Below, piece by piece: positions 14,587 through 29,262 of a stretch of 64,000 nt of DNA. The translations under genes and the position numbers were made by a program. The first letter of the stretch is position 1; every line of letters begins with the position of its first letter. The stretch is from a candidate division WWE3 bacterium. Its GTDB lineage: Bacteria; Patescibacteriota; 4484-211; GCA-002791395. The stretch is taken from positions 22,797 through 86,796 of the forward strand of contig JAAXWF010000001.1 of assembly GCA_013335095.1 (NCBI GenBank). Reading direction: 5' to 3'. The notes below the pieces were generated by a model that did not search any database, was not told the origin of the DNA, and worked only from the letters and a program-made list of their open reading frames with translations.

Positions 14587-14607
14587 TAGTACGAATTGTA
14601 ACAAAAA

Positions 14608-14637
14608 AACCGCCGTAGGTTACCCCACGGCGGCATA
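14608..14637 (-). terminator. Hairpin ccgccgtagg/cccacggcgg with U-tract for minus gene 14656-15036
   Basis: Inverted repeat preceded by A7 on plus strand. Confidence 0.55.
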
Positions 14638-14655: not shown

Positions 14656-15036
14656 CTACTCGGAGTACCGAGCGACCAGCTCGGCAATCGGATCAGTCCC
14701 CAACTCAGGAGGACATTTGGCCTCGTCGAAGTAAAGCTTGACCTGGCGTAGAATCGCCAGAGTAAGCCGCATCGCGGCCATTGGCATAGGTTGGCCAACG
14801 TCCTTGTTAGTAACCGTGACCATCCGCCCCAACGGGCCATTACCACGCGGATGGACGGTGACCTCAATTGACCCGTCAGACCAAATCCAGAATTCACCTT
14901 CTCGAATCGCGATGGCTAGGTGAGCCAAGGCGATAAAGTCGAACGAGATGCCGTACTGCATAGAGACTTCGCCAAACTCACGGGCCGCTTGAGCGGCATT
15001 TACGCGAGTAGTGAACATCTCCTCCACTCTAGGCAT
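14656..15036 (-). CDS. Hypothetical protein (high-GC)
   Basis: 126 aa; adjacent to the upstream gene (operon). Confidence 0.5.
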   Translation of the reverse strand: MPRVEEMFTTRVNAAQAAREFGEVSMQYGISFDFIALAHLAIAIREGEFWIWSDGSIEVTVHPRGNGPLGRMVTVTNKDVGQPMPMAAMRLTLAILRQVKLYFDEAKCPPELGTDPIAELVARYSE

Positions 15037-15048
15037 GCCATGACCTCC

Positions 15049-15399
15049 TTAGAACTTTGCGAACCACTGTCCGCTAAATCGAATCTCCGGATACCCTTCG
15101 ATCACCAGCCACTGGCGGTGTCCGACAGCAACCAGAAGCGGTTGCCAGCTCTCATCCGGCAAACACGCTGGACTGTGGTACTCGCCATCATGATGATGAC
15201 AAGCAGGCTCATCGACAGGAACCGGAATGACCTCCCTCACCCGAAATGGGCCGCACCCATAGCTCCGAAGGTGGAGCTCTTCCATCAGATTGGTATGGGA
15301 CTCGCGATCCCAAACGACCAGATCACCAGGAGCAAATAGCTCCCGCTCCATTGCCGCAGTCTGCGGGTCAGTAGAAACCGCCACAAGCGTGGGACTCAT
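15049..15399 (-). CDS. Hypothetical Cys/His-rich protein (CHHHDGEYHSPAC)
   Basis: ATG 15399 with aaggaggg RBS. Confidence 0.5.
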   Translation of the reverse strand: MSPTLVAVSTDPQTAAMERELFAPGDLVVWDRESHTNLMEELHLRSYGCGPFRVREVIPVPVDEPACHHHDGEYHSPACLPDESWQPLLVAVGHRQWLVIEGYPEIRFSGQWFAKF

Positions 15400-15630
15400 C
15401 GTACCCTCCTTGCATGGCTCAATTCCTCGCCATCCCGGCGACACAATAGGTGCGTATCATTTTAATAGATTCCCGACAATAAATCAAACACTATAGGTAA
15501 CCGCATCAAGATGGAGTCGCAGCAGCTTTATTTGTTATAAATACATATTTTTGATACAATCGGTCCGTCCTATAAGACAATTCAGGAGTCTGAAAAGCTG
15601 CTGAATTTGGCTGGTTTCAAAGGAGGGTCA

Positions 15631-17838
15631 ATGGCCGCCAAACAGGAAGTCCTAAACCTGGAGCGATTCTCAGGGGCCGCACGGAATCTACTCCGCGATG
15701 CCCTAATAATCGCCTCCGAGGCCGAACACAAGTCCTACGTCAGCTTCGAGCATCTGCTACTGGCGATTCTACAATCGACAGACGCGAATGCATACCGGCT
15801 GCTGGTGGACGCCGGATGTGAACCGGAACGACTCCGGGCAACTATCCGGGCTACGGCTGTTCGAACGCCTCAGGTTAATGGGGTGCTACTCACACACGGT
15901 GAGCTATCGCTGCCGCTTAGTACTGATGCCGCCCGCATTATCGAACGATCTCGTGAAGCTGCATCAAAATTCAGTGCAGCTAAAATCGGATCGGATCATC
16001 TGCTACTGGCGATGTTCGAGGTTGACGAAAGTCGAATCGTCCTCGTCGCAGCCGGCGTTCGCGTTGAAACGATCAAAAGCCTCGTGCTTGAGATCCACCA
16101 AAGCGGACACACCGAAAAAGGTGATGCGGCAATCATCGGCCTGGAAGAGCTTGGCACTCAAGCAGGCCAACTCGAGCCGATCATCAACGTGACTATCGTT
16201 GACGCACTCTGGACACTGTGGACTCATCGTCGCTTGCCGGGGGTCCTATTATTCGCCGAGAGTGGCGCGCCAGCTTGGGATCAAATCCTTGGTCTGGTAC
16301 GCCGACTAAGCTCAACCAAGGAGCCAAAGTTTAGCCTCATCGCGATTTCGCCCGATGCATATCTGAGTAACCCGATCCTGACGATTCAGGCGGCGATTCG
16401 GCGTGCATTGGATGAAAAAGCGATCTTGATCCTTCCCGATATTGGCCAATATGTAGGTCAAGTCGAAGACGGATTCACGACGGCAGTAAGCTTGGTTCGT
16501 GAGGCAGTGCAAAACAGCGGACTCAAGATAGTTGGGATCGCTGAACCGGCCTATCGATCAGTATTATCGAAGGATCGTCTGTTTAGTCGAATGAGGTTTA
16601 CAGACGTCGAAGCCACAACGATAGATCAAACGATCGCCTATATTACAAGGCTGATCGAGACTCTTGTTGATGGCCGAATTACGTTTGCTGAGGATACCCT
16701 CAAGCAAATTGTAGAACTCGCGGATCAGTATCTCCCGCGAGAGTTACCTGGCTGCGCGATTGACCTAACCTACGACGTAGTAGCCGCAGCCGAACTCGTC
16801 TTCGATCAGCAGCAAACTGAGTCGGTCCAGATTGATGGGAATCTCGTACTAGCTGTGCTAGAGAGGCTCACCAACCTTCCACTCGGTAAGCTGATTGGTA
16901 CAGAAAAAGAGAGACTGGCGCAGATGGAGGAAATCATCCATCGTCGCTACGTTAATCAAAAAGATGCAGTGACCGCACTGGCGCGCTCGATAAGGCGCAG
17001 TCGCACTGCATTCCGGGATAAACGACGCCCAATCGGCACGTTTCTATTTCTCGGAACAACCGGAACCGGCAAAACAGAGCTCACCAAAGCTCTGGCCGAA
17101 TTTCTGTTTGGGTCGGACGAAGCCCTGGTGGGCATCGATATGAACGAGTTTGCTGAACCACATACCGTGTCAGCACTACTTGGTTCACCCGTCGGTTATG
17201 AAGGCCACAGTCAGTCTACCCCACTGGATGTGGTTGCCCAACGACCATTTATGGTAGTCCGGTTCGATGAGATCGAGAAGGCACACGACGACGTGCTGCT
17301 TGCTCTGCTCGGACTGATGGAAAACGGATATATTACAACTCGGAGTGGACGAAGGATTAACTTCCGACACACGGTTGTGATTATGACGTCAAACGTAGGG
17401 TCGGAATACCTACGAGGAGAGGATCCAGGATCTGAAAAAGACCAAGCGCTCGCAGCGCTTAAGGATCGTTTTCGCCCGGAGTTCCTCAATAGGGTCGATC
17501 GAACGATCGTCTTTTCACCCTTTAGCAGTGACGATCTGCAGAAGGTTGCCGGGATGTTCCTGGCTTCAACGGTAAAAGAAGCCGCTGAAGAAGGGATCAA
17601 CCTGGTAGTCGCCGCCACGACCTTGCAGCAACTTGTAGCCAACATGGCTCAGGAGTGCAAACAATACGGCGCACGACCACTTCGTCGAGTCATTGATGTA
17701 CTCGAAGAGGTGATTGTCGATGGTATCGTTGCTGGCATATTCAAACCAGGACAAACCGTCGAGGTTCGATTCATGGATAATAAGTTGGAACCGGTCATCG
17801 TATCGGATACATCAGAGGAGGGAGCAGATCATGTCTGA
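15631..17838 (+). CDS. ClpC/ClpB-like AAA+ protein: two Clp_N repeats, degenerate NBD1 (Walker A replaced by ESGAPAWD; Walker B DE replaced by PD), intact NBD2 (GTTGTGKTEL, FDEIEKAH, GARPLRR)
   Basis: aaggaggg RBS; ATG 15631; motif comparison with ClpC/ClpB. Confidence 0.7.
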   Translation: MAAKQEVLNLERFSGAARNLLRDALIIASEAEHKSYVSFEHLLLAILQSTDANAYRLLVDAGCEPERLRATIRATAVRTPQVNGVLLTHGELSLPLSTDAARIIERSREAASKFSAAKIGSDHLLLAMFEVDESRIVLVAAGVRVETIKSLVLEIHQSGHTEKGDAAIIGLEELGTQAGQLEPIINVTIVDALWTLWTHRRLPGVLLFAESGAPAWDQILGLVRRLSSTKEPKFSLIAISPDAYLSNPILTIQAAIRRALDEKAILILPDIGQYVGQVEDGFTTAVSLVREAVQNSGLKIVGIAEPAYRSVLSKDRLFSRMRFTDVEATTIDQTIAYITRLIETLVDGRITFAEDTLKQIVELADQYLPRELPGCAIDLTYDVVAAAELVFDQQQTESVQIDGNLVLAVLERLTNLPLGKLIGTEKERLAQMEEIIHRRYVNQKDAVTALARSIRRSRTAFRDKRRPIGTFLFLGTTGTGKTELTKALAEFLFGSDEALVGIDMNEFAEPHTVSALLGSPVGYEGHSQSTPLDVVAQRPFMVVRFDEIEKAHDDVLLALLGLMENGYITTRSGRRINFRHTVVIMTSNVGSEYLRGEDPGSEKDQALAALKDRFRPEFLNRVDRTIVFSPFSSDDLQKVAGMFLASTVKEAAEEGINLVVAATTLQQLVANMAQECKQYGARPLRRVIDVLEEVIVDGIVAGIFKPGQTVEVRFMDNKLEPVIVSDTSEEGADHV

Positions 17839-18772
17839 CACGCCGGCGCCCGATACAACCGCTGCGGCTGAGAAACCGCAGTTGACAGCCGACGCAATCG
17901 TTACAATGATTGGTGGCTGGATTAGTCAGGGTCATTCAAGCGCCCGGATCTCACAGTACCTGGCAGTACGGGGTATCACCACAGACCTGGTCAGACAAGC
18001 CTGTGCGATGATTCGGCAGGCCGTAACCGAGCAAACCACTCAGGTAGCCGAACTGCGCACCCAGATGCAGGCTGATCTGGATACCGAAGAGTCTACGTAT
18101 ACCAGTGCTCGGGCTGTTCAGCAAGGTCTGCTGGATCAGGCTCAACAGATCATGGCACAAGCGAATGCGGTTCTCGCATTCTACGGTGCCCAGAGCGAAG
18201 CACAGCCTGCGGCGGCTGAGGGTGTGACGCAGGAAACAGCCGTAGAACCGGTGGAGGAAAAGCCCCGCTGGCCAAGTTTCCTCGGCAATATCTTCGAGGC
18301 GTTGTCGGTGGATGATGGACAAGCCGCGGTAGAAGCTGCTTCACTACAGACTGAGGCGAACACGGATATTGCCCAGCCAAGCACTCCATCGTTGGATGAT
18401 CCATATGTACCACTTCAGGTCATATTGGTCATAGCGGATCTATCGATCCAGACGACAAGGCGATGGGATAGTCTGCGGGCTTTATCGGTAGATGAAGGAC
18501 GAACGCCGGACCTAGATCTTGCCGATCTACAGACGACGTTTGAAGTTCTAAAGCCGCAGTTTGAGCGCGGCCGACTTATGGCGCAGCGCCAGGCACAGCA
18601 GAGTCAGTCGGCTATTGGAGTGTATGAAGCGCATTGGTCGCAAGTACGTGCGCAGAATGCACAAAACGTAGCTGAGCTCGACCAGAGGGCGGCGACACTC
18701 ACGAGCTTTAACCAAGCCTGTGACGCAGTGGAGACAATGATCGCCACAATTGAGGCTTCGACCCAGGCCTAA
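17831..18772 (+). CDS. Coiled-coil protein, translationally coupled to the ClpC-like gene (ATGTCTGA overlap)
   Basis: gaggaggg RBS inside the upstream gene; 313 aa, Q/A-rich heptad-like regions. Confidence 0.55.
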   Translation: MSDTPAPDTTAAAEKPQLTADAIVTMIGGWISQGHSSARISQYLAVRGITTDLVRQACAMIRQAVTEQTTQVAELRTQMQADLDTEESTYTSARAVQQGLLDQAQQIMAQANAVLAFYGAQSEAQPAAAEGVTQETAVEPVEEKPRWPSFLGNIFEALSVDDGQAAVEAASLQTEANTDIAQPSTPSLDDPYVPLQVILVIADLSIQTTRRWDSLRALSVDEGRTPDLDLADLQTTFEVLKPQFERGRLMAQRQAQQSQSAIGVYEAHWSQVRAQNAQNVAELDQRAATLTSFNQACDAVETMIATIEASTQA

Positions 18773-18792
18773 TTTTAAACATGGGTTAAAAA

Positions 18793-18835
18793 AATAACCG
18801 CCGGGTGGTACCACAATGGTACCCACCGGCGGTTT
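18793..18835. terminator. Perfect bidirectional terminator (accgccgggtggtacc acaa tggtacccaccggcggt) with A-tract and T-tract
   Basis: 16-bp perfect inverted repeat between convergent operons. Confidence 0.85.
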
Positions 18836-18863
18836 TTCATATCTCTCTAACTCTAATTACTAC

Positions 18864-19946
18864 CTATCTTTTTTCCCCTCCCTTACGAACTACCGCCGAC
18901 CGAGTACCCGAGGTACGCCGCTGGCTAGTCGGTTGTGGGACCGTTGAGGTCAGAGCCCCTCCGGCCAATCCGACATTAGCAACGTCGGCAGCGTTTACAG
19001 GTCCAGCTTCACCACCTGCCATCCACGCCGAGACGGTATTCTGGGCTCTTTCGGTTGCCAGAAGACTTTCAACAGTCCTTCCAAGCTCTTCGGCGGCTGC
19101 AGCCTGGTTCAGAGACTGAACCCCCGCAGACATCGCACTGACTTCAGCCTGAACACGTTCAAACTGTTGCGAAATAGTCAGCCGGGCCTGATCGAACTGA
19201 GCTTCGACCAGGTTGATCATCCGACCAAGCGCTTCGGGGCTGTTAACCCCCTGCTGAACGGCTTCAAGGTGACGTTGGGCAGCCGCATGAGCGGCGCTCA
19301 AACTATTGAGCAGTTCGGCGTCACCCCTGGCGTCTTCCATCTCAGCCAAGAGTCGCCGGACTTCACGTTCGGCGAGCTCTACGGCACTGTTATCGCCGAT
19401 AACCACCGCGAACAGCTGCCCCATGAAGTTCAGCCGTCGCTGGTACAACCGAACTGAAAGCTCCAACAGCTTATCGATGTCGGGCATAATCAGTTGGCGA
19501 GCTGAATCTCCCAAGCCTTCGGAGTCGAACAGTCGATCAAGTTGCTCAACCTGAGCAAAGACTTGATGTAGCTGTTCACGCCGGGCTTCAAATTCCCGCT
19601 TAGTATACGGCGGGTTTTGTGAGTACCGATATTGCTCATAAAGGCCGATCAGACGACCTTCGAGCTCATCCTGTAGCCCTTCAACTTCGCGCAGGATCTC
19701 ATCGGACTCAGTCACGTTCAGGAGGTCATACAGAGACTTCCCGACATACGCGACCAGAGTAATCGATGCCCCTGTTAGAACAGCAGGAATTGCTGCAGCA
19801 GGGGCAATGGCCAGTAGCCCTAAGCCGGATACGAAAGACAATAGTCCTCCGCCAATGGCAATCGTCAGATTCCGTTCGTCTAGAAAAGCTTCCCCAAACT
19901 CACCCAACGAATTCCGTAAGTCGTCGACCAGACGATTCCCGCTCAT
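18864..19946 (-). CDS. Membrane-anchored coiled-coil protein (two N-terminal TM helices; XpaC/TelA-like architecture, family assignment tentative)
   Basis: Hydrophobic segments at aa 27-70, then long helical region; aaaggag RBS. Confidence 0.5.
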   Translation of the reverse strand: MSGNRLVDDLRNSLGEFGEAFLDERNLTIAIGGGLLSFVSGLGLLAIAPAAAIPAVLTGASITLVAYVGKSLYDLLNVTESDEILREVEGLQDELEGRLIGLYEQYRYSQNPPYTKREFEARREQLHQVFAQVEQLDRLFDSEGLGDSARQLIMPDIDKLLELSVRLYQRRLNFMGQLFAVVIGDNSAVELAEREVRRLLAEMEDARGDAELLNSLSAAHAAAQRHLEAVQQGVNSPEALGRMINLVEAQFDQARLTISQQFERVQAEVSAMSAGVQSLNQAAAAEELGRTVESLLATERAQNTVSAWMAGGEAGPVNAADVANVGLAGGALTSTVPQPTSQRRTSGTRSAVVRKGGEKR

Positions 19947-20104
19947 CGAGCGCTCCTTTCCATCGTTACGATCGATCCAACTAGTTCTTGGTTTCTGAAC
20001 TAGGATAAAGCCAAGTATACTGCATGAATTTATCTTAATTAAGAAAATGGGCCGACTCTCAATTAAGAGAGACGGCCCAACATTACGCTATGTTAGCGTG
20101 CGAT

Positions 20105-21961
20105 TTATCGAGCCCCTGGCAGCACCAGTTGGCAGCCAAAGAATCGGTCCTGCCGCCTGATATTTTCATCAGCGGCGTTCATGTGGCTCGGATCCGACGG
20201 AATCACCGGCTTAAACGCGATCCGCTCGACCGGAACGTTCCGGTTTGAAAGCAGATCACGGATAGCCGGAATTCGAACGTCCGTCAGAAACGCCATCAAT
20301 CCTTCGGCGGTATCCCCGGGAGGCCAGGCAGTGCCGACCTCACAGAGCATCAAGACATCGACCGAAGTTGCCTTAAGGGCAGGCTTGATCGAATTATCTA
20401 CGTACGCATCGAAGCGTCCGACCGACTCTTCGACCAACGTGCCTTCGTTGGCGTTGAATTCAAAGAACTCGCGAGGGAACGTTGCCACAACGTCCTCAGG
20501 CTTGATCCCCGTCACGTCGACCGGATTGACCTGAGGTCGCCGATCGAGCGTGAACTCTTTGGCCGTAAACAACGCCCGGGCATCGGTAAGTAGCTCGGGG
20601 TGGCGCTCAGCGGTTCCCAGTACGAACTGGGGATTAACGACCGTCATCGGGTCGAACTGCTGAACTGGTTTACCACCATACCCCCACAGTTCGCTTGTGA
20701 ATGCGATCTGGGTTGCGATCACTCCGCGCTGGCCATTGGCCTGGGTGGTGCGCTGGTCATTCATCAGGTTGACGTTCGACCGGAGCGTCGCTTGCGCGAT
20801 ACCGTTCATGTAGTCGCGCATAGCTGCATCGGGAGACATTCCCGAATCAATCAAGGCCTGGATACCGGTCCAGCCATCGTGGCTCTGATCCCACTCAGAA
20901 ATCATGGTGGCGGCCCCGGCGGGGTCGCTGAGCATGAAGTTCAGGGCATCGAACCAGGCGTCATGAAACGCCTGCACCAGAGCCGGGTTTTCCCCGACAA
21001 TCTGGTTCGAGAAGATCACGCCATCGATAAGGCTTGGAAGGTTTTCGCTTCCGATGACCTTATAGCCGATATCAACATCCTGGCCATTTCCGTCGTAGAT
21101 GAAAACGGTTTTGCCGTCATCGCGAAGGTTAATGACCGGGATCCAGCCGACCATCACGTTGGTCTGGCCCGCCTGATAGGCTTCCAGAGCCTGTTCAGCC
21201 CGGTTGATATCAGGAAGCATCATGCGAACATTCGGATCCGCGGCATTCTCGCGACCAGCGTAATAAAACGTGATCGTTAGAAGCTCACTCACCGAATTCG
21301 CACCTGCCGCAATCGGCTTGCCAATGATCCCCTGGAGCGTTTGATTTGGCTCCCGGGAAACCATGAAATCCGATCCGCGGCTCATGGAGATGATCAACGT
21401 GTTGACGCCGTACGCCCCTTGCAGGGCAAAGGTGTCGACTGTGGTTAGACCACAGTTGAACTCTCCCGTACGCAGGTAATCAGCCTGCTGATTCTCGTCA
21501 AAGTCATTCTGGTCCAGATTGGGGCCAGAAGCCATGGGCACCAGCTCAAGCTCGAAGTTGTGCTTCGCAGCGAATTGCTGAGCCATGAGGATGGTTGGGT
21601 AGTAGCTCGGGTAGTTAGCCACGAAGCATTTCAGTGTACCCAACGAGCCACTTGCTGACGTTGTTCCGGCTTGATTCACTGGGGTTGCCGCTGCAGCAGC
21701 CGTTGGCTGAATTTGCGAGCTCCCTGCCGTTGCGTTATTCGGATTTACCGTCGGCGCGCCCCCCCCGAAGGGAACGACTTGCGTGACGGAAACCGAAGTA
21801 GGTGCGGTTGATGCACTGCTATTGCCCCTGATCAGCAAGGTACGAATCCCCAAACCGATCACGGTGAGCAGCATCAGGACCGCAAGGATAGCAATACCGA
21901 CTCGAGTTGGACTAAGACGCCGACGTCGGCGCAATGAACTACCATCGGTTGGTGAACTCAC
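20105..21961 (-). CDS. Membrane-anchored protein with NMT1/SsuA-like periplasmic substrate-binding domain and C-terminal extension of unknown function
   Basis: GTG start 21961 with AGGAGG RBS; Arg-rich N-terminus plus TM; SBP-like region YPSYYPT...GWIPVINLRDDG. Confidence 0.5.
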   Translation of the reverse strand: MSSPTDGSSLRRRRRLSPTRVGIAILAVLMLLTVIGLGIRTLLIRGNSSASTAPTSVSVTQVVPFGGGAPTVNPNNATAGSSQIQPTAAAAATPVNQAGTTSASGSLGTLKCFVANYPSYYPTILMAQQFAAKHNFELELVPMASGPNLDQNDFDENQQADYLRTGEFNCGLTTVDTFALQGAYGVNTLIISMSRGSDFMVSREPNQTLQGIIGKPIAAGANSVSELLTITFYYAGRENAADPNVRMMLPDINRAEQALEAYQAGQTNVMVGWIPVINLRDDGKTVFIYDGNGQDVDIGYKVIGSENLPSLIDGVIFSNQIVGENPALVQAFHDAWFDALNFMLSDPAGAATMISEWDQSHDGWTGIQALIDSGMSPDAAMRDYMNGIAQATLRSNVNLMNDQRTTQANGQRGVIATQIAFTSELWGYGGKPVQQFDPMTVVNPQFVLGTAERHPELLTDARALFTAKEFTLDRRPQVNPVDVTGIKPEDVVATFPREFFEFNANEGTLVEESVGRFDAYVDNSIKPALKATSVDVLMLCEVGTAWPPGDTAEGLMAFLTDVRIPAIRDLLSNRNVPVERIAFKPVIPSDPSHMNAADENIRRQDRFFGCQLVLPGAR

Positions 21962-22026
21962 AGAGCACCTCCTAAAAGTAAGAGGGACTGCCGCCCATTT
22001 GCGGCAGCCCACTTTCCGATTTAGAA

Positions 22027-22788
22027 CTACTTCTCCGGCGTCAGCCGGGTCGTAGCAGCACCATCAGCAGTAGCAGGTCCAGCCTGGCCGGCTTTCTTCT
22101 TGGCGATGAGTGCCGTAAGCTCCGGACTCATCTCACCCAGAGAGAGCGCGCCACCAGGGGCGAGGCCTGCTTCCATAACCGCGCTCGACATGCGAAGCCG
22201 GGCATCAGCGTCACGCCGCCCGTCATCGGCACGATCCTGAAGCTCTTCGAGCTCCCAAAAGTCGTTGCCCTGACCAATGCCGGCCATCTGTTCCTGCAGT
22301 GAAGCAAGACCAGCTTTAGCCTCATTCGCAGCGATGCGGATCTTGTAGCCGTTGGCTTGAGCTGCCTTAAGACGAGCTGCGTTGATATTACGCAACATAA
22401 TCGCCTTAATGTTGGCTTGAGAGGCAACAGACTCGAGGTCTCTCAGAAGCCCCTCAACGATTGGCTGATGCATCTGGATCTCCTGATCCAGGGCCATTGC
22501 TGTTTCTAGGTCTTCATTTTCGACCGCTTTCTCGCGCCGTGCCTTGAGCTGATCGAGGTACTGAACCTGACGGGCCACATCCTCGGCGAAAGCCTCCTGG
22601 CTTTTGCTCAGCTCAACGCCAGCCCAATAAGCCGAATCCTCGGCTCCCTTGGCCTTGTCGCGTACGCTCTCAAGGAGGTCATCGGTGCTTTCATTGCGAA
22701 GCCACCGCCCAACCTCCCGCCAAAATCGATTCCAAAGCTCGCCGATCACAAATCCCGGACCATTCCGACGAGGAGAACGATTAGACAT
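22027..22788 (-). CDS. PspA/IM30 (Vipp1/LiaH) family protein
   Basis: Coiled-coil with C-terminal PspA-like FWELEELQDRADD segment; ATG 22788 with ggagga RBS. Confidence 0.5.
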   Translation of the reverse strand: MSNRSPRRNGPGFVIGELWNRFWREVGRWLRNESTDDLLESVRDKAKGAEDSAYWAGVELSKSQEAFAEDVARQVQYLDQLKARREKAVENEDLETAMALDQEIQMHQPIVEGLLRDLESVASQANIKAIMLRNINAARLKAAQANGYKIRIAANEAKAGLASLQEQMAGIGQGNDFWELEELQDRADDGRRDADARLRMSSAVMEAGLAPGGALSLGEMSPELTALIAKKKAGQAGPATADGAATTRLTPEK

Positions 22789-23096
22789 ATGAGTATCCTC
22801 CGTAGAACTACTACACCTGATACAGGCTCCGATGCGAATCCACCGAAAGGTCAATCCATTAGCTGGGATTGCTCCCCTTTCCGCTAAACGTGAAATACAC
22901 GCTTACACATTCAGTAAGCGATTTACTTTTACCATATTTTGCTCCTAACGTCAAAACATAACAAAACACTATAAGACGAGATTGCTTATAAATATTCGTT
23001 TTCATCCTTAAATACTTATCAAGCTTTACTAAAAGGCTTATACTTATAAACGCCAATACATCGGCATCGTGGAACGCACGACTATAGGAGGCGTCA

Positions 23097-24521
23097 ATGA
23101 CCCCATCAAGTGGCACGTACCGTGAACATCTTGAGAATCACGGTATCTCGGTACGAACGGATCCAGTCTTGCCGTTTTTTCATTACGATAGAAACGGTAA
23201 GCTCGTCATCAGAGTATCAGGCTACTCCGACCTGGATCTGTTTGAGGTGTATGCAAGGTACGGTGCGGTTCAGCTGAACCTGCCCGATCTAGCAACACAA
23301 AGAGTACATCAGAGATGGGCCATTAATGGAGCGGCAGCAAAGGCTGCCCATTATCCCGAGGCAGTTCAAAGCGCCTATGCGACAAAAGCCAACGACTGGT
23401 ATCCAGTCGTTTCCCGAGTCGTTCGCGCCGGGTGTCATCAAGAGACCTCATCGCCATCGGGGGTCGCAGCAGCTCAGATACTTTGGGAAAGGGGCGAAAT
23501 TAGCCCAGAGCAGATGGTGATTTGTAATGGATACATTACAGCACCATATGCGGGCGCAATTCACGATTTGCGACATGCCGGATTTGCGAATACTATTCCG
23601 GTAATCGACAAAGAAAGCGTGCTGGCGCTCTTCCGACGCGACCATACGTGGCGATTCGGGATCCGGCAACGGGCTCATTTGCCCGCTCAAACAGACACCA
23701 AACCACACAAGGGTGTGTCTCGGTTTGGAATGGATTATGAAGAGCTCAAACGAGTCGCGATGATGATCCAGCGCAACCCCGGATGGGAGTTGGTGTTATA
23801 CCACTTCCACCTAGGTAGCCAGATCATCGATGAGGATAATTTCCTCGGCGGGTTACTGTCTGCAGCGACTAACTACTGTCGACTCAGGCAACAGGTCCCA
23901 ACCCTTCAATATCTTGATATTGGAGGAGGCGCACCAGTCCAATACGGCCTAACCCCACTCACGATTAATCTAGAGCTATTGCTCACTAGATTCTTGGTGA
24001 GCTTAAAGGACCTGTGTACACACTTTGACGTTCCCTGTCCGACGGTCATCACAGAATGGGGACGGTTCACGGTAGCGCCAAGCGAGCTACGGATGATGGA
24101 AATCCGGGCTCAATATGAACCTGGATTTATTCAAGTCCATGACACAATTATGGGCTCATTGGCGGATAATTGGGCAATCAAGCAACCGTTCCCAGTACTT
24201 TCTCTGGCGGGGCTTGACCACCCGACGACACGAGGCAAGATCGTTGGGCTAACCTGCGACGAAGATGATTGTCTATTCACGGAAGACGACAATCATGTGA
24301 CCATCGCTCGTCCAGATCGATTTCGGACTCCCGGGTCCGAGGTTTTGGTAGTTGCCAATACCGGCGCATACCAGTCAAACCTCGGGAATCTGGAGCACTG
24401 CATGCAGTTGCAGGAGGCGGTAATTGCCGCGTATCTCCATCGCGGGCAGTGGGTGTTTGAGACGGTCCGTCCCAGACAAATGGCCAAAGACATGCTCAAG
24501 CTGTTTGGCTGGCCTGTATAG
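23097..24521 (+). CDS. PLP-dependent decarboxylase, fold type III (Orn/DAP/Arg decarboxylase family; arginine-decarboxylase-like)
   Basis: YATKAN PLP-lysine motif, HFHLGSQ, DIGGG motifs; taggagg RBS. Confidence 0.6.
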   Translation: MTPSSGTYREHLENHGISVRTDPVLPFFHYDRNGKLVIRVSGYSDLDLFEVYARYGAVQLNLPDLATQRVHQRWAINGAAAKAAHYPEAVQSAYATKANDWYPVVSRVVRAGCHQETSSPSGVAAAQILWERGEISPEQMVICNGYITAPYAGAIHDLRHAGFANTIPVIDKESVLALFRRDHTWRFGIRQRAHLPAQTDTKPHKGVSRFGMDYEELKRVAMMIQRNPGWELVLYHFHLGSQIIDEDNFLGGLLSAATNYCRLRQQVPTLQYLDIGGGAPVQYGLTPLTINLELLLTRFLVSLKDLCTHFDVPCPTVITEWGRFTVAPSELRMMEIRAQYEPGFIQVHDTIMGSLADNWAIKQPFPVLSLAGLDHPTTRGKIVGLTCDEDDCLFTEDDNHVTIARPDRFRTPGSEVLVVANTGAYQSNLGNLEHCMQLQEAVIAAYLHRGQWVFETVRPRQMAKDMLKLFGWPV

Positions 24522-24542
24522 CCGAGTAGGTCACTGTTAGTC

Positions 24543-24577
24543 GGGGCGAGCGGAAACGTTCGCCCTTTTTTTATCAC
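24543..24577 (+). terminator. Hairpin gggcgagcg gaaa cgttcgccc followed by T8
   Basis: Inverted repeat plus T-tract. Confidence 0.7.
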
Positions 24578-24675
24578 CCCGCAGCACCAAACTATAGGAC
24601 TCCATGGTATATAATTACACTTAAGTTTCCGATAAATAAGACTAGGAGCCAGTCATAGCTGGTACAGGAGGTCGG

Positions 24676-25227
24676 ATGAAGCGCTGCTTCGCGTGCTCGG
24701 GCAAAAGCCCAGTCGATGCGCAGTACTGCATCAACTGCTCGGCACCATATCCGATAGCAAGCACGGGCACCACGAAACACCTTGGAAAACAAGACGACCT
24801 TGCCCGCACCATAGCCGTAACACACATAGCAGCTATGATGGGGTTAATCCAGTTCACCATGATCATCATCGGCGACATGCTGATGTACAACATCATAGGA
24901 CTGGAATACTGGAAGTCTCTTTCGTTGTTCGAGTTTAGCCTGTTGTGGACATGTCGAGGTATGCTCGATACCGGTATCAGCCTATTGGTACTCATCGGGT
25001 TGCTTCGCTTGACAACAAAAATGGTAATAACAGGTTCGCCTCGCCAGATAGCCAAAAAACGAATCATCGTCACGGCTATCTTAGCGCTGGTGATGTCAGT
25101 AGTTGGGCTCATGGTAGCTCCTGAGTTAAACTACAACCTGCAGGACAAAACCACAATATTGGCCATCAGCCTCATAATGGCCGGAGCGGTTGGTACACTG
25201 ATAGGTAGAGCAAGTAAGACTGCATAA
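24676..25227 (+). CDS. Membrane protein with N-terminal zinc ribbon (CxxC...CxxC) and four TM helices
   Basis: caggagg RBS; Cys pairs; hydrophobic segments. Confidence 0.55.
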   Translation: MKRCFACSGKSPVDAQYCINCSAPYPIASTGTTKHLGKQDDLARTIAVTHIAAMMGLIQFTMIIIGDMLMYNIIGLEYWKSLSLFEFSLLWTCRGMLDTGISLLVLIGLLRLTTKMVITGSPRQIAKKRIIVTAILALVMSVVGLMVAPELNYNLQDKTTILAISLIMAGAVGTLIGRASKTA

Positions 25228-25231
25228 ATAG

Positions 25232-25268
25232 CTGCCGGGGCTTAGCACAACTAGTCCCCGGCTTTTTT
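25232..25268 (+). terminator. Hairpin gccgggg...ccccggc followed by T6
   Basis: Inverted repeat plus T-tract. Confidence 0.7.
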
Positions 25269-25346
25269 ATTTCTTAATTTCATAAAAGTTGATACTAGAG
25301 CCTATAATATTAATACGGTGATTTAAGGATCGTAGAGGAGGCAAGT

Positions 25347-26000
25347 ATGCCATTGCAGACCGATTGGAGTAATGTCGGAACGGCGAATCTACGCCGTAAG
25401 GTGGCCAAGCTGATTAAGCGTGCAGAGATTGACGTTGACCAGCGCTATCTCGCCCTCCACGCCATGGGTCTACCCCAGGGACAGATCCCAAACGTGGAAA
25501 AGCTGATTGACGCAGCCACCCGGGAGCAGCTCGAAGCTGCCGCAACGATCTTGTCGTACCTGATTGGTCCAGCCAAAGAAGCGGGCAAAGGTACAACGAT
25601 TGAGCAAGACGCTCGACGATGGTGGGAAGAGGCCCTTGCGGCCAACGCCCACAATGGAATCCCACAGGAATGGGTTAATAGGATCGACCTACTGACTCAG
25701 CTCGAAAATCTGGGTTATGGTGTAGACCAGATCAACCCGGTCGTACGACTGGGCAAAGTTCAGGTGTACCGACTGATCGTCAATCAGTTCAAGCTTGCGG
25801 CAGATCGGTACAACGAGAACCTAGGCACCCTGGTCGAAGTATCTAGGCGGGAGTGGGAAGCATTTTGCAACGCGAAGCAGGAGGATGAGGTCCTGGTAGC
25901 GATGCGCGCATGCTTCACCTGGATACAGGATCGTAGCCAGCCGATGCCGTCTCCTCGGCAGATGCTGCTGTTCTACGGTATGCTCGGCAGCACAATCTAA
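25347..26000 (+). CDS. Hypothetical protein (high-GC)
   Basis: agaggagg RBS; 217 aa. Confidence 0.5.
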   Translation: MPLQTDWSNVGTANLRRKVAKLIKRAEIDVDQRYLALHAMGLPQGQIPNVEKLIDAATREQLEAAATILSYLIGPAKEAGKGTTIEQDARRWWEEALAANAHNGIPQEWVNRIDLLTQLENLGYGVDQINPVVRLGKVQVYRLIVNQFKLAADRYNENLGTLVEVSRREWEAFCNAKQEDEVLVAMRACFTWIQDRSQPMPSPRQMLLFYGMLGSTI

Positions 26001-26017
26001 GGTTTGCTCGAAAATGG

Positions 26018-26052
26018 TGCCGGGGATCCACATGGATCTCCGGTTTTTTTAT
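26018..26052 (+). terminator. Hairpin ccggggatcca...tggatctccgg followed by T7
   Basis: Inverted repeat plus T-tract. Confidence 0.65.
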
Positions 26053-26124
26053 TTACAACCTCCATAAAACTATCTAAAAATGACTCACATTAATGATTAT
26101 TGATATGAATATGATGCCTAAAAA

Positions 26125-26152
26125 AAAGGCAGCGAGTTTCCCCGCTGCCCGA
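26125..26152 (-). terminator. Hairpin ggcagcg...cgctgcc with U8 on minus strand, 3' of 26175-26786
   Basis: Inverted repeat preceded by A8 on plus strand. Confidence 0.6.
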
Positions 26153-26174
26153 TCGTAGCACCTCCTGAAAATTT

Positions 26175-26786
26175 TTAGTCGAACGCCATCAGTTCGACCC
26201 AGTGATTGTCACGAACTGCGGCCCAATCAAGGGTCCCCGCAATTGAGTGACACTCCTGACTCACCCGCCACGGATCTCCCGCGGCAAGCAGGTCAAGATA
26301 AGCCGAGCGGTAATCAGCCGCCCGAGCAACGCTGCCGACTCGTTCGGCCTTGCCGGGATGAGTTCGCTCAGGTCGGACACGAAAGCAGACCAGCTCCCCC
26401 TTCTTAAGGGTTGGCTGAACCCAGTCGTGCCCATTCCGATAGAACTCTATCGGCGTAAAACCTTCAGAAAATCGGACGTTCCACACGTCCGATCCATGAA
26501 AGTAGTACGACCGTCCAACGGCACTGTTGCCGTCGATACCCAGCCCCTTGATAAATCCGAAGCCTTTGCTGGCATCATAGAATGTGACTTCGCCGAGGAA
26601 AAGCACGTGATGCTTTTCTGGCTGATCGTCAGCAAACCAGATTGGCCCAAAGCTTCGAGGATTTTTGGCCGCCTCCACCACATCCGCCCGACAGATCGGG
26701 CAGAATCCATTATGGCGAACAACATTCGCCTCCTGCGTATCGTCCTCGATGGTGTGGGCGCACGGGAAAAAAGTCACCGTAGCCAT
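26175..26786 (-). CDS. Fusion protein: N-terminal Cys/His zinc-finger-like motif, central cold-shock domain (KGFGFI), C-terminal domain of unknown function
   Basis: CSD signature GEVTFYDASKGFGFIKG...YYFHGSDV; aaggaggg RBS. Confidence 0.6.
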   Translation of the reverse strand: MATVTFFPCAHTIEDDTQEANVVRHNGFCPICRADVVEAAKNPRSFGPIWFADDQPEKHHVLFLGEVTFYDASKGFGFIKGLGIDGNSAVGRSYYFHGSDVWNVRFSEGFTPIEFYRNGHDWVQPTLKKGELVCFRVRPERTHPGKAERVGSVARAADYRSAYLDLLAAGDPWRVSQECHSIAGTLDWAAVRDNHWVELMAFD

Positions 26787-26955
26787 GGGAGTCCCTCCTT
26801 GGTGTAGAGCAGCGCTCTACTATATTAGGTGCCAGGTCCAAAACAGTACCACCATAATAGCCTATAGTAGTACTGCCTGTCAAATTTTTAAAAATAGCCG
26901 TTACATTGGCGTCTCATTTAAAAAAATATTATAGTAGTAAGGATTAGTACGTTCG

Positions 26956-29262
26956 ATGATCGAAAAGACCTCTAAACAATTAATAACCTTCATGACGATT
27001 GTGAGTTCATTCATGATCGTTGCATTGTCCCTACTATTTATTGATAGTTACGGTTCTAAAACAGCTTCAGATAATCGAAAATCAGCCAGTGCTGCTCAAA
27101 ATACTGGTAATTATGTACTCTATACCCAAACAGACATTGACAATATCAAGGCTCAAATCAATTCAAATACCACCATTAAAAATGCTTATAACGACCTCAT
27201 CACTAAGGCAAATGAAGATTTAAATGGCTCATTCCATTTCTACGGTGGAACTTCACATACCGCAAATAGCCAAGCATCACGAGCCGCGCTTAGACTAGCT
27301 CTGGCATACAGGCTTACGGGAGATACGCAGTATGCATCGAAAGCAAAAAGCGTGGTTATGACCGTTACGAGTGCATCAACTATGGTAACTGATGATCCAT
27401 CAATACCCGACAAAGCAACCGCATCGGATAGTCTTTTGTTATATGGGGTCGATACTCCAGGCATGATTCTTGCAGCTGATTTTCTTGATACTTATCCTGG
27501 GTTCAATTCAAGTGAAAAGCAGTCGGTAAAAGATTGGTTTAACGCGACAGCGCGAAGCGCTATGACTCTTCATTACAACACCAAAGTACAAGCTGAAGCC
27601 GGACGTGAATATATGGATCTTGGGTTTACGAACTATAACAGTTGGAGAGTTGTTTTAATTATGACTGCGGGAATATATACCAAAGATTCTGAATTATTTA
27701 ATTTTGCAGTTAGTTATTTTAAAAACTCCCTCATGGAAGAAATGTTTAATTCTTTAGGAGTAGCCGTATGGGAAGTACGAAGAATCACGACAAAAACCTA
27801 TTACTACTCTCACTATACAATTTCGGGAATGCTGCAATTAATTATACTTGCGCGAAAACAAGGAGTCGATCTTGCCAGCTATAAAAATTCTGCCGGGGCG
27901 AATCTTAAAACAGTTCTGGATTATTATTACCAGTTTGCGAACGGTACGCCGTGGCCTTATGAAGGAATAGAAGGGTCTAATCCTCCAAAATATTCTGATG
28001 TATGGGAAAACTTTGAAGCAGGTTATTTTATGTATAAAGACTCAAGATATAACACGCTCATAAATTCCTATCGACCGACATACTGGAGGTCTGGCATCAT
28101 GACTCCCAACACGTTATTTTTCTTAAGTAGTGATTTCAATAATCCTTCAAATCCGATAACGCCAAACCCGACCACAACAGGTGCGCCTACAGCAACACCC
28201 ATACCAGTACCGACCGGTCGAATAAATCCATCGCCACGATTGCCGATCTCGCCATATAATTCGACCGGAACGCCGTGGGCAATACCCGGAACAATTGAGG
28301 CGGAAAGTTTCGATAATGGTGGTGTGGGGATTGCCTACTACGACACTGATTCAGACAATATTGGCGGAGCATATCGATCGACAAGCATTGATATTGATCC
28401 CTACAGTAACGGTAATTACAGCGTAGCATGGATTAGGCCAACAGAGTGGCTACGGTATTCGGTGTTTGTCCAAACACGCGGGATATATGACATTAAACCT
28501 CGAGTCGCCTTCAAAGGACCGGCAGGAAATTTTGATATTGAGATTGATGGCAAAGTCGTCGGTAGTTTTACCATACCTGATACAAAAGAATTTAGCGCAT
28601 TTACCGATATAACCGTAGGAAATATTCAGCTAGAAACCGGATATCATGTACTTCGAATTATTGCAGTCAGTGCAAATGAGGGTAGTTACGATGGATTGAT
28701 GGGAGATATTGATAAATTCACCTTCGTCTTAACTAAAAACCTTTCTACGTCACCGAATACCCAATCGCCCGCTGCGGTACCAGGAAAAATCGAGGCGGAA
28801 AACTTTGACCGAGGTGGCGAAGGGATCGCATATCATGACACCAAGACTGGCAACGAACTTGTGATTCAAAATAAAGGCGGGATTGATTACCGACCAGGAG
28901 AAGGTGTCGATATTGGGAAAAACGCAAATGGCGCAACCTATGTCGGCTGGATTGAAAATACCGAATGGTTAGTCTACACCATTAACGTAACTGAAGATGG
29001 CTATTACCACCTATCGGCACAAGCTGGATTTAATGGCGCTGGTGGAAGCTTCGATCTTGAGATTGATGGTAAGACTCAAGGGCACTTTACTATTCGAGAT
29101 TTGGGTGCATGGGATATTTACACCACCATACCTGCATGGCCTCCGTATATCAGGTTAACCAAAGGTACACATACCCTTCGGCTCATCGCCAAACAACGAC
29201 CTGGTGTATCCACCTATCAAAATCTTCTCGGTGATATCGATTATTTCGAAATTTCAAAGTAA
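26956..29262 (+). CDS. Secreted alginate-lyase/heparinase-II/III-like (alpha/alpha)6 toroid domain protein with two C-terminal CBM6-like modules
   Basis: Signal peptide; AYRLTGDTQYASKA motif shared with 32473-34503 and 48996-50897; two repeats IEAE(S/N)FD.GG.GIAY.DT...W..Y. Confidence 0.5.
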   Translation: MIEKTSKQLITFMTIVSSFMIVALSLLFIDSYGSKTASDNRKSASAAQNTGNYVLYTQTDIDNIKAQINSNTTIKNAYNDLITKANEDLNGSFHFYGGTSHTANSQASRAALRLALAYRLTGDTQYASKAKSVVMTVTSASTMVTDDPSIPDKATASDSLLLYGVDTPGMILAADFLDTYPGFNSSEKQSVKDWFNATARSAMTLHYNTKVQAEAGREYMDLGFTNYNSWRVVLIMTAGIYTKDSELFNFAVSYFKNSLMEEMFNSLGVAVWEVRRITTKTYYYSHYTISGMLQLIILARKQGVDLASYKNSAGANLKTVLDYYYQFANGTPWPYEGIEGSNPPKYSDVWENFEAGYFMYKDSRYNTLINSYRPTYWRSGIMTPNTLFFLSSDFNNPSNPITPNPTTTGAPTATPIPVPTGRINPSPRLPISPYNSTGTPWAIPGTIEAESFDNGGVGIAYYDTDSDNIGGAYRSTSIDIDPYSNGNYSVAWIRPTEWLRYSVFVQTRGIYDIKPRVAFKGPAGNFDIEIDGKVVGSFTIPDTKEFSAFTDITVGNIQLETGYHVLRIIAVSANEGSYDGLMGDIDKFTFVLTKNLSTSPNTQSPAAVPGKIEAENFDRGGEGIAYHDTKTGNELVIQNKGGIDYRPGEGVDIGKNANGATYVGWIENTEWLVYTINVTEDGYYHLSAQAGFNGAGGSFDLEIDGKTQGHFTIRDLGAWDIYTTIPAWPPYIRLTKGTHTLRLIAKQRPGVSTYQNLLGDIDYFEISK

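Follow-up and report, generated by a model that had tools for sequence, protein, structure and literature searches.

Does a group of three co-oriented genes in a candidate division WWE3 genome encode an envelope-stress system of the PspA type, and how are its unusual partners to be understood? The genes lie on the minus strand of a 64,000-nt stretch of DNA, here called the window, from a metagenome-assembled genome (MAG) of this lineage of the Candidate Phyla Radiation (CPR). The three open reading frames (ORFs) and their common orientation were confirmed, and are referred to below as the triad of genes 1, 2 and 3. The products of genes 1 and 2 (253 and 618 aa) are identical to the NCBI entries HGA91_00265 and HGA91_00260 and are carried on a 536-kb contig.

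We consider it moderately likely that the triad belongs to a cell-envelope maintenance module, in which gene 1 would supply a polymer, gene 2 a sensory or structural ectodomain, gene 3 a membrane adaptor, a convergent Hsp100-family ATPase the recycling activity, and a divergent arginine/ornithine-decarboxylase-like (ADC-like) enzyme a metabolic link. The module is conserved in presumed monoderms and common in Chloroflexota; here it is found in a block of higher guanine-cytosine (GC) content within the WWE3 genome. The initial annotation of this DNA had placed the combination of a PspA homologue with a solute-binding membrane partner outside the classic Psp/Lia architectures. Such a partner is indeed absent from the classic systems, but the novelty was overstated, because the combination is listed by Ravi et al. 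(2024, mSystems, PMC11237479). The window carries a variant of the architecture catalogued there and not a new kind of system.

The proteins of the triad

Gene 2 encodes a bitopic protein with no cytoplasmic signalling or output domain. A short, Arg-rich cytoplasmic tail is followed by a single transmembrane (TM) helix, an A/S/T/P-rich linker, a fold of the NMT1/SsuA type (families PF09084, PF13379, TIGR01728), a linker region and an OmpA-like domain (Table 1). The window protein alone gives no Pfam match, neither to NMT1 nor to OmpA, and its NCBIfam matches to TIGR03427 (urea-type, E = 5.8e-6) and SsuA_fam (E = 4.6e-3) are both far below the cut-offs. At the family level, however, the proposed NMT1/SsuA-type domain is solid. 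Full-length relatives with 25-28% identity (tblastn E from 1e-28 to 1e-45) are present nearly exclusively in Chloroflexota MAGs, and 61 of the 64 aligned relatives match Pfam NMT1. When the family profile was compared with the PDB, SsuA (3.6e-8), TauA (1.7e-7) and NrtA (4.1e-6) were retrieved. When metagenomes were scanned for proteins closer to the window clade, only Chloroflexota-like relatives were returned, again with 25-28% identity.

Most of the 200-aa C-terminal region previously described as unknown appears to be an OmpA-like domain. Pfam OmpA (PF00691) is matched by 60 of the 64 aligned relatives, mostly just under the cut-off (best E 7.4e-7), and these matches fall on the columns aligned with residues ~495-618 of the window protein. 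The family profile likewise retrieves the OmpA family from the PDB (7.3e-6, profile positions 434-548), together with YiaD and Pal. R563, the conserved Arg of the L-S-x-x-R-A motif, is invariant, while a conserved A545-W546 is found instead of the canonical Asp of the T-D-x-x-G (TD) motif. Because of this exchange, the wall ligand may be atypical. The solute-binding membrane partner is real, and carries in addition a putative wall-binding domain and one TM helix; its large domain, initially called periplasmic, is better termed extracytoplasmic, because the host is presumed to be a monoderm.

Gene 1 was initially described as PspA/IM30-like, with failure of the PspA_IM30 hidden Markov model (HMM) named beforehand as the result that would speak against it. 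Neither gene 1 nor any of its five closest relatives, scanned alongside, is recognized by this HMM (Pfam PspA_IM30, PF04012) even at E <= 1-10; the PspA of a related Chloroflexota operon (L014), used as a control, scores 62.9 bits against a cut-off of 33.9. NCBIfam and PADLOC scans did not detect PspA either. Searched exhaustively by phmmer, 1.84 billion representative proteins yielded four other small families at 32-38% identity and no PspA, so that the gene 1 family amounts to five 50%-identity representative clusters including the query's own. PspA and Vipp1 were also absent from phmmer and family-profile searches of PDB sequences. Judged by these searches, gene 1 is not a demonstrable member of the PspA_IM30 family.

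A profile comparison by hhalign aligned the gene 1 family with operon-linked PspAs over 83 columns and in register, including the hairpin tip (ENEDLETAMALDQ versus VEGNESAAMATQ), at a marginal E = 0.049; the template contained only about 1.6 effective sequences (Neff), which makes this a weak comparison. The E value against E. coli PspA was 0.15, while the operon-linked PspAs as a control aligned with E. coli PspA at E = 1.4e-6. As an attempt at a more diverse PspA profile, a tblastn search with E. coli PspA in plasmids gave almost solely enterobacterial copies, Chloroflexota PspA found no match in plasmids by tblastn, and a further homologue search contained, among the matches listed, only relatives with at least 74% identity.

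What speaks indirectly for the initial proposal is a likeness in predicted architecture. An AlphaFold2 (AF2) model based on a six-sequence alignment predicts helices at residues 11-32, 35-90, 94-120, 124-169, 179-206 and 222-235, with a predicted local distance difference test (pLDDT) score of 59.6 overall and of ~60-89 across residues 31-150. PspA and Vipp1 reportedly share a helix plan of α0 to α5, as described in cryo-EM papers of 2021, and the six predicted helices correspond to it one-to-one if a 10-residue N-terminal extension is allowed for. In a Foldseek search of the PDB with this model, ranks 1-12 are all Vipp1 or PspA (E = 2.5e-3 to 0.12), followed further down by the PspA entries 7abk and 4whe, CHMP2A/3 and CdvB; coiled-coil hairpins are, however, prone to spurious fold matches. 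The highest hydrophobic moment of the protein (μH 0.85-0.90 for 18-mers from residues 14-15) lies in its N-terminal helix, where an aromatic and basic pattern is conserved across the family, making residues 11-32 a candidate for the membrane-binding helix α0. At the other end, G218, E219, S221 and L224 are invariant within an LGE-x-S-x-EL motif that leads into the short helix 222-235. The pLDDT is locally raised here after a low-confidence linker, and this helix is a candidate docking peptide. The presence of a bona fide PspA in the homologous operon of the Chloroflexota points in the same direction. Gene 1 is probably a cytoplasmic, all-helical and highly divergent polymer subunit of the PspA/Vipp1/ESCRT-III type.

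Gene 3 conforms to the predicted two-TM coiled-coil protein. A TM hairpin (residues ~27-69) is followed by a helical/coiled-coil region of ~230 aa and a basic low-complexity tail, and homologues hold the same position in two loci of the window clade (L002 and L007). The XpaC/TelA-like layout noted initially is confined to this arrangement of two TM helices and a helical domain: gene 3 and ten other two-TM coiled-coil proteins from related operons matched neither TelA (PF05816) nor XpaC (PF10112) at E <= 10, and an assignment to these families was rejected. A Snf7-type identity likewise found no support at the HMM level, where none of the same eleven proteins has a Pfam Snf7 match, and only the operon position fits; PDB sequence and profile searches gave no Snf7 match for gene 3 and were uninformative. 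Gene 3 is probably a membrane adaptor.

Partner genes and their co-conservation

The gene convergent to the triad encodes a 743-aa Hsp100/Clp-family ATPase. Its D1 ring is degenerate (Walker A AESGAPAWD, Walker B LPD), its D2 ring is intact (GTTGTGKT, FDEIEKAH), and it has neither an M-domain nor an IGF-type [IVL]G[FL] ClpP-docking loop between the SN-x-G motif of D2 and RPEF. NCBIfam scores for ClpB, ClpA and ClpV are far below the cut-offs. Due to the dead D1 ring, the intact D2 ring and the missing ClpP loop, the protein appears from its motifs to be a ClpB/ClpV-like, non-proteolytic remodeller with one active ring, and its earlier classification as ClpC-like has to be abandoned. D1 degeneration is not confined to the window, as the Walker A sequences of the window protein and its orthologues in L021 and L170 read AESGAPAWD, GETGVGRRS and GEPGSGRRS (34% identity). 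Homology to these proteins is full-length according to phmmer (1.3e-95) and the MAFFT alignment (34%), whereas BLASTP, applied to two of the Hsp100 proteins, aligned their N-domains alone. The ATPase is a candidate remodeller of the gene 1 polymer.

The start codon of a 313-aa partner gene overlaps the last codons and the stop of the ATPase gene at 17831-17838, a hint of translational coupling. No Pfam domain was detected in the partner. Homologues are convergent to the triad in L007 and L008 (phmmer 1.5e-20 and 1e-17), where the C-terminal FER-x-x-LMAQRQ region is kept.

On the opposite side, a gene for a 474-aa pyridoxal-phosphate (PLP) enzyme is transcribed divergently from gene 1. Its SpeA-like NCBIfam match (8e-38) remains under the cut-off, with 130 bits versus a required 369 and 112 versus 624 in the comparison with SpeA (TIGR01273/NF003763), and on these scores it is no SpeA equivalog. 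The fold-type III motifs YATKAN (with the PLP lysine), DIGGG (GGG motif) and CDEDD (CD-x-x-D motif) are all present, and the enzyme is therefore probably active.

Loci carrying relatives of these genes were numbered L001 to L170, and the census of neighbours comprises 169 loci. Co-conservation of the triad, which the initial annotation had proposed to check by a neighbourhood survey, is found: the same order is kept in about seven other loci of the window clade at 19-46% identity. In L001/L002, a divergent ADC-like gene is followed by relatives of gene 1, gene 2 (42%) and gene 3 (27%). In L007/L008, a Band_7/SPFH gene (L007 683-1492) takes the place of the ADC-like gene upstream of relatives of gene 1 (38%), gene 2 (~45%) and gene 3 (32%); Band_7 is a PspA-associated partner (Ravi et al. 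2024, PMC11237479). Three further loci (L006, L009, L010) are fragments that show part of the triad order and are compatible with it.

Two more distant groups carry related arrangements. In a high-GC clade deeply divergent from the window clade, L021 and L160 contain genes for a coiled-coil protein, an NMT1-OmpA protein and a two-TM coiled-coil protein, with a convergent Hsp100 whose D1 ring is dead. L170 fits this pattern as well, on a contig that begins partway through the NMT1-OmpA gene. The convergent stops of the Hsp100 and two-TM coiled-coil genes lie only 9-15 nt apart in L160 and L170, very tightly tail to tail (L160 2078-3733, L170 1821-5027). In the Chloroflexota, the order ADC-like, NMT1-OmpA and SBP_bac_11-VWA occurs in ~80 of the 169 loci in total: in 63 without further members, and in 19 others with a bona fide PspA_IM30 gene after the VWA gene. 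In 17 of these 19, the PspA gene is followed in turn by a gene for a two-TM coiled-coil protein; L014 (8501-14848) is an example of such an operon with PspA. About a dozen loci carry a two-TM coiled-coil gene immediately before the NMT1-OmpA gene. No other neighbour is as widely co-conserved as the ADC-like gene, which adjoins the gene 2 relative in 101 of the 169 loci.

Separately, eight loci of Chloroflexota (L019, L022, L032, L033, L036, L049, L053, L055) have a gene for a membrane protein of ~296 aa ahead of the ADC-like gene. Judged by eye, this protein may be an MscS-type mechanosensitive channel.

The closest published counterparts are described in Ravi et al. (2024, PMC11237479, Table S3, Text S2.2). 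In Ca. Handelsmanbacteria (OGG56892.1), PspA is followed by SIG+PBPB+OmpA, ABC permease and ATPase genes, SIG+TM+Snf7 and inactive-AAA+AAA, and in Archangium (AKJ06548.1) the order is PspA, PBPB and TM-Snf7 (Ravi et al. 2024, PMC11237479). The same study links bacterial PspA to a protein with two AAA+ domains of which the N-terminal one is inactive, and describes recurrent links between PspA operons and polyamine genes. Compared by published description, the window locus and the Handelsmanbacteria operon share a helical protein of the PspA type (in the window a probable one) in first position, then a secreted or anchored solute-binding fold fused to OmpA, a membrane-anchored helical protein and a two-AAA+ ATPase with an inactive N-terminal copy, and both are known from comparative genomics only. 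Different from that operon, the window has no ABC permease or ATPase; its binding fold scores with NMT1/SsuA and not with PBPb; its ATPase is of the Hsp100/Clp type and convergent instead of a co-directional "classical AAA"; its gene 1 is too divergent for PspA_IM30 and its gene 3 gives no Snf7 signal; and an ADC-like decarboxylase is linked. Neither VWA nor NMT1 nor Clp is mentioned in these contexts in the text and supplement of Ravi et al. (2024, PMC11237479), and the decarboxylases covered there are AdoMet decarboxylases only, with no Orn/Arg-type enzyme.

A proposed envelope module and its rivals

The proposed mechanism starts at the cell wall. Gene 2 would cross the membrane once and tether its putative ligand-binding fold to the wall via the OmpA-like domain. 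Because gene 2 lacks a cytoplasmic output domain, a wall or ligand signal would have to pass laterally within the membrane, most plausibly from gene 2 to the TM hairpin of gene 3. Gene 3 would act as a hairpin-anchored adaptor whose cytoplasmic coiled coil recruits the gene 1 polymer, and gene 1 would polymerise on the stressed membrane. The Hsp100 and its 313-aa partner may then disassemble and recycle this polymer, comparable to the action of Vps4 on ESCRT-III or of ClpV on the type VI secretion sheath, with the C-terminal LGE-x-S-x-EL helix of gene 1 as candidate docking site. The ADC-like enzyme would tie the module to amine or polyamine production, its product perhaps serving as ligand or as envelope modifier. 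Gene structure, the domain content of gene 2 and of the ATPase, and the co-conservation of these genes are direct results of the analysis, whereas the PspA-like nature of gene 1, all contacts between the proteins, the ligand and the direction of signalling are inferred. A more far-reaching version, in which presumed monoderms (Chloroflexota, and CPR bacteria by transfer) possess a self-contained ESCRT-like machine made up of a cryptic polymer, a TM-hairpin adaptor, a dead-D1 Hsp100 as Vps4 analogue, control by a peptidoglycan-tethered ectodomain and ADC-like amine coupling, is possible but in our estimate doubtful.

Several observations weigh against the envelope module. No sequence method places gene 1 into PspA_IM30, both AF2 models of gene 1 are of low confidence (pLDDT 58-60), and a Foldseek search with the single-sequence model yielded no specific Vipp1/PspA match (best E 1.5). 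The fold evidence thus varies with the AF2 model used, and because the single-sequence model ranks neither PspA nor Vipp1 specifically, we rate the assignment of gene 1 as an ESCRT-III/PspA-like protein as likely but no higher. For gene 3, hhalign comparisons with PspA and with gene 1 are not significant, no Snf7 homology is seen, and homology to the Chloroflexota two-TM coiled-coil family was not detected (E = 0.23). The bona fide PspA of the Chloroflexota stands after the VWA gene and not before the NMT1-OmpA gene, which renders its positional equivalence to gene 1 imperfect. The link to the ATPase is based on four loci and on the partner gene in L007/L008, and terminator-like hairpins between the genes argue against strict co-transcription of the triad.

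An alternative explanation is that the ADC-like decarboxylase and the wall-tethered NMT1-OmpA protein form the actual core, an amine- or polyamine-linked envelope system, while genes 1 and 3 are lineage-specific scaffolds unrelated to PspA or ESCRT-III. The two proposed core genes are by far the most conserved pair, ~80 of the 101 loci with this pair contain no PspA or two-TM coiled-coil gene in the stretch examined, and it would account for the failure of gene 1 in all sequence tests for PspA and for the loss of the fold-search signal with its single-sequence model. It is less easily reconciled with the helix layout and amphipathic N-terminal helix of gene 1, which fit PspA, or with alignment-model Foldseek matches that are specifically Vipp1/PspA and not generic coiled coils. 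Moreover, 19 loci have gained a real PspA within the same operon, the context of PspA with PBPB/OmpA is already published (Ravi et al. 2024, PMC11237479), and L007/L008 retain the triad with Band_7 in place of the ADC-like gene. We consider this explanation unlikely as a whole, yet it is the most serious competitor of the envelope module.

Gene 2 could also be the membrane-tethered binding subunit of an ABC importer with unrelated neighbours. Folds of the NMT1/SsuA/TauA/NrtA type are typical of importer binding proteins, lipid- or TM-anchored binding proteins are common in monoderms, and an ABC ATPase and a permease are indeed part of the operon published for Handelsmanbacteria. Yet no ABC permease or ABC ATPase gene is present beside gene 2 in the window or among the recurrent neighbours in the 169 loci, a C-terminal OmpA-like fusion is not an importer feature, and the conserved synteny with coiled-coil proteins favours a structural or sensory role, which makes an importer improbable. 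Even less credible is the idea that the block is a defence or mobile island gained by horizontal transfer, in which the ATPase and the coiled-coil proteins would act against phages. It would be in line with the GC content of 0.50-0.56 in the 15-27 kb block, as opposed to ~0.40 for the rest of the contig, and with moderate PADLOC matches of the ATPase to PDC-M37B and DolB. These matches are, however, confined to the generic AAA+ domain and no other protein of the block matches a defence model, which led us to reject this reading; no integrase, tRNA or flanking repeats were found, and the same genes occur in ordinary chromosomal settings of many Chloroflexota genomes.

Genomic setting and relation to known systems

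The coordinates of the genes, domains and putative transcription signals are compiled in Table 1. All three triad genes are preceded by GGAGG-type ribosome-binding sites (RBS).

Table 1. Features of the triad and its neighbours; positions refer to the window, residues to the respective protein.
Feature	Positions	Strand	Details and basis
Gene 1	22027..22788	-	253 aa, HGA91_00265; ORF and RBS
Gene 1, N-terminal amphipathic helix	22693..22758	-	Residues 11-32 (GFVIGELWNRFWREVGRWLRN); hydrophobic moment
Gene 1, C-terminal motif LGE-x-S-x-EL…	22084..22143	-	Residues ~216-235; family alignment and AF2
Hairpin with T-rich tail, gap between genes 1 and 2	21985..22010	-	Terminator-like scan; -29.4 kcal/mol, z = -3.0
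Gene 2	20105..21961	-	618 aa, start codon GTG with GGAGG ahead of it, HGA91_00260
Gene 2, single TM helix	21830..21901	-	Residues ~21-44; Kyte-Doolittle 19-residue mean up to 2.8
Gene 2, NMT1/SsuA-type (class II periplasmic-binding-protein) domain	20762..21640	-	Residues ~108-400; NCBIfam, family Pfam/PDB
Gene 2, OmpA-like (peptidoglycan-associating) domain	20108..20479	-	Residues ~495-618; Pfam of relatives, PDB profile
Strong hairpin, then AUUUUCUU; 158-nt spacer separating genes 2 and 3	20048..20079	-	-31.3 kcal/mol, z = -5.0
Gene 3	18864..19946	-	360 aa; ORF
Shared bidirectional intrinsic terminator	~18796..18834	both	Sequence and folding
Hsp100/Clp-family ATPase	15607..17838	+	743 aa; Pfam Clp_N, AAA_2, ClpB_D2-small
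313-aa ATPase partner	17831..18772	+	ORF
ADC-like PLP enzyme	23097..24521	+	474 aa; Pfam Orn_Arg_deC_N 1.2e-16

Where the stops of gene 3 and of the plus-strand ATPase pair face each other, the terminator is strong, shared and bidirectional, as initially described for 18793-18835: A and U runs flank a hairpin with folding energies of -29.5 and -29.7 kcal/mol on the two strands (z = -4.8 and -6.4). It is not strictly perfect, because a 2x2 internal loop separates stems of 9 bp and 7 bp. The triad was also proposed to be a three-gene operon. Hairpins are present in both gaps, and due to their terminator-like character the triad is perhaps no simple operon. The hairpin between genes 1 and 2 is a possible attenuator lowering expression of gene 2 relative to gene 1. 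The one between genes 2 and 3 resembles an intrinsic terminator (0 of 200 shuffles were equally stable), and transcription of gene 3 may be partial or separate from that of genes 1 and 2.

In the 308-nt divergent gap between gene 1 and the ADC-like gene, a palindrome CGCTTAC-N7-GTAAGCG is found at 22900-22920, perhaps an operator or else a small terminator. The terminator-like hairpins at 14589-14625 and 18796-18834 have near-identical arms (AAAAACCGCCG…CGGCGGTTTTT), and two more repeat pairs of 31-33 nt (12168/13045 and 25255/26037) consist of a GC-rich segment beside an A- or T-run. These arms and repeats may represent a small family of reused terminator sequences.

Located in the GC-rich block (window 15000-27000) are the genes of the Hsp100 and of its 313-aa partner, the triad, the ADC-like gene and three small ORFs. 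The GC contrast would fit the arrival of the block in one piece from a donor of higher GC; the gene 2 family is found mainly in Chloroflexota. An RNA-element check of the block gave no Rfam match. Also observed in this CPR genome was a gene (26956-29262) for a secreted protein of 768 aa that combines alginate lyase, CBM35 and CBM6 domains.

Among the classical systems, E. coli PspF-ABCDE, B. subtilis LiaIH and M. tuberculosis ClgR-PspA-PspM-PspN resemble the window locus in placing a PspA-type effector (in the window a probable one) beside small integral-membrane partners, and envelope-stress protection is thought to be the role in each case. The counterparts of gene 3 would be PspB/C, LiaI and the two-TM PspM, which recruit the PspA-type effector, so that the proposed recruitment of gene 1 by gene 3 parallels the pairs PspB/C-PspA, LiaI-LiaH and PspM-PspA. 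In contrast to these systems, the window has no PspF, LiaRS or ClgR regulator and no PspC, LiaF or Toastrack domain; conversely, the classical systems lack both a partner with an extracytoplasmic binding fold and OmpA domain and a dedicated Hsp100.

The combination of a proposed helical-hairpin membrane polymer with a dedicated non-protease AAA+ unfoldase is reminiscent of ESCRT-III/Vps4 (CdvB/CdvC in archaea; Snf7/CHMP with Vps4 in eukaryotes). It also recalls the recycling of the VipA/VipB sheath by ClpV in type VI secretion, where ClpV, likewise an Hsp100, uses its N-domain to take a polymer apart. Unlike in ESCRT-III/Vps4, the window ATPase carries Clp_N instead of an MIT domain and its D1 ring is dead, and gene 1 has no recognisable MIT-interacting motif (MIM), its conserved C-terminal helix being a candidate docking site. 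With the Chloroflexota operon, the window shares a homologous gene 2 over the full length, a homologous ADC-like gene (~30%) and, in a subset of loci, PspA-type helical and two-TM coiled-coil proteins. Unlike in that operon, a VWA gene is missing from the window, the ADC-like gene is transcribed divergently and not co-directionally, the PspA-like gene precedes gene 2 instead of following a VWA gene, and the two-TM coiled-coil protein is not detectably homologous.

For the CPR, the GC-rich block is consistent with envelope functions gained by transfer, although a mobility signature was not found. In the Chloroflexota, a widespread operon of ADC-like, NMT1-OmpA and SBP-VWA genes is tied to membrane-stress proteins. 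If gene 1 is indeed related to PspA, HMM-based censuses of PspA overlook whole clades. The analysis finally bears on the question of how bacterial PspA/Vipp1 polymers are dismantled: with its compact pairing of a PspA-like protein, a predicted non-proteolytic Hsp100 with a single active ring and a wall-anchored ectodomain, the locus is a candidate bacterial equivalent of ESCRT-III/Vps4 that can be put to the test.

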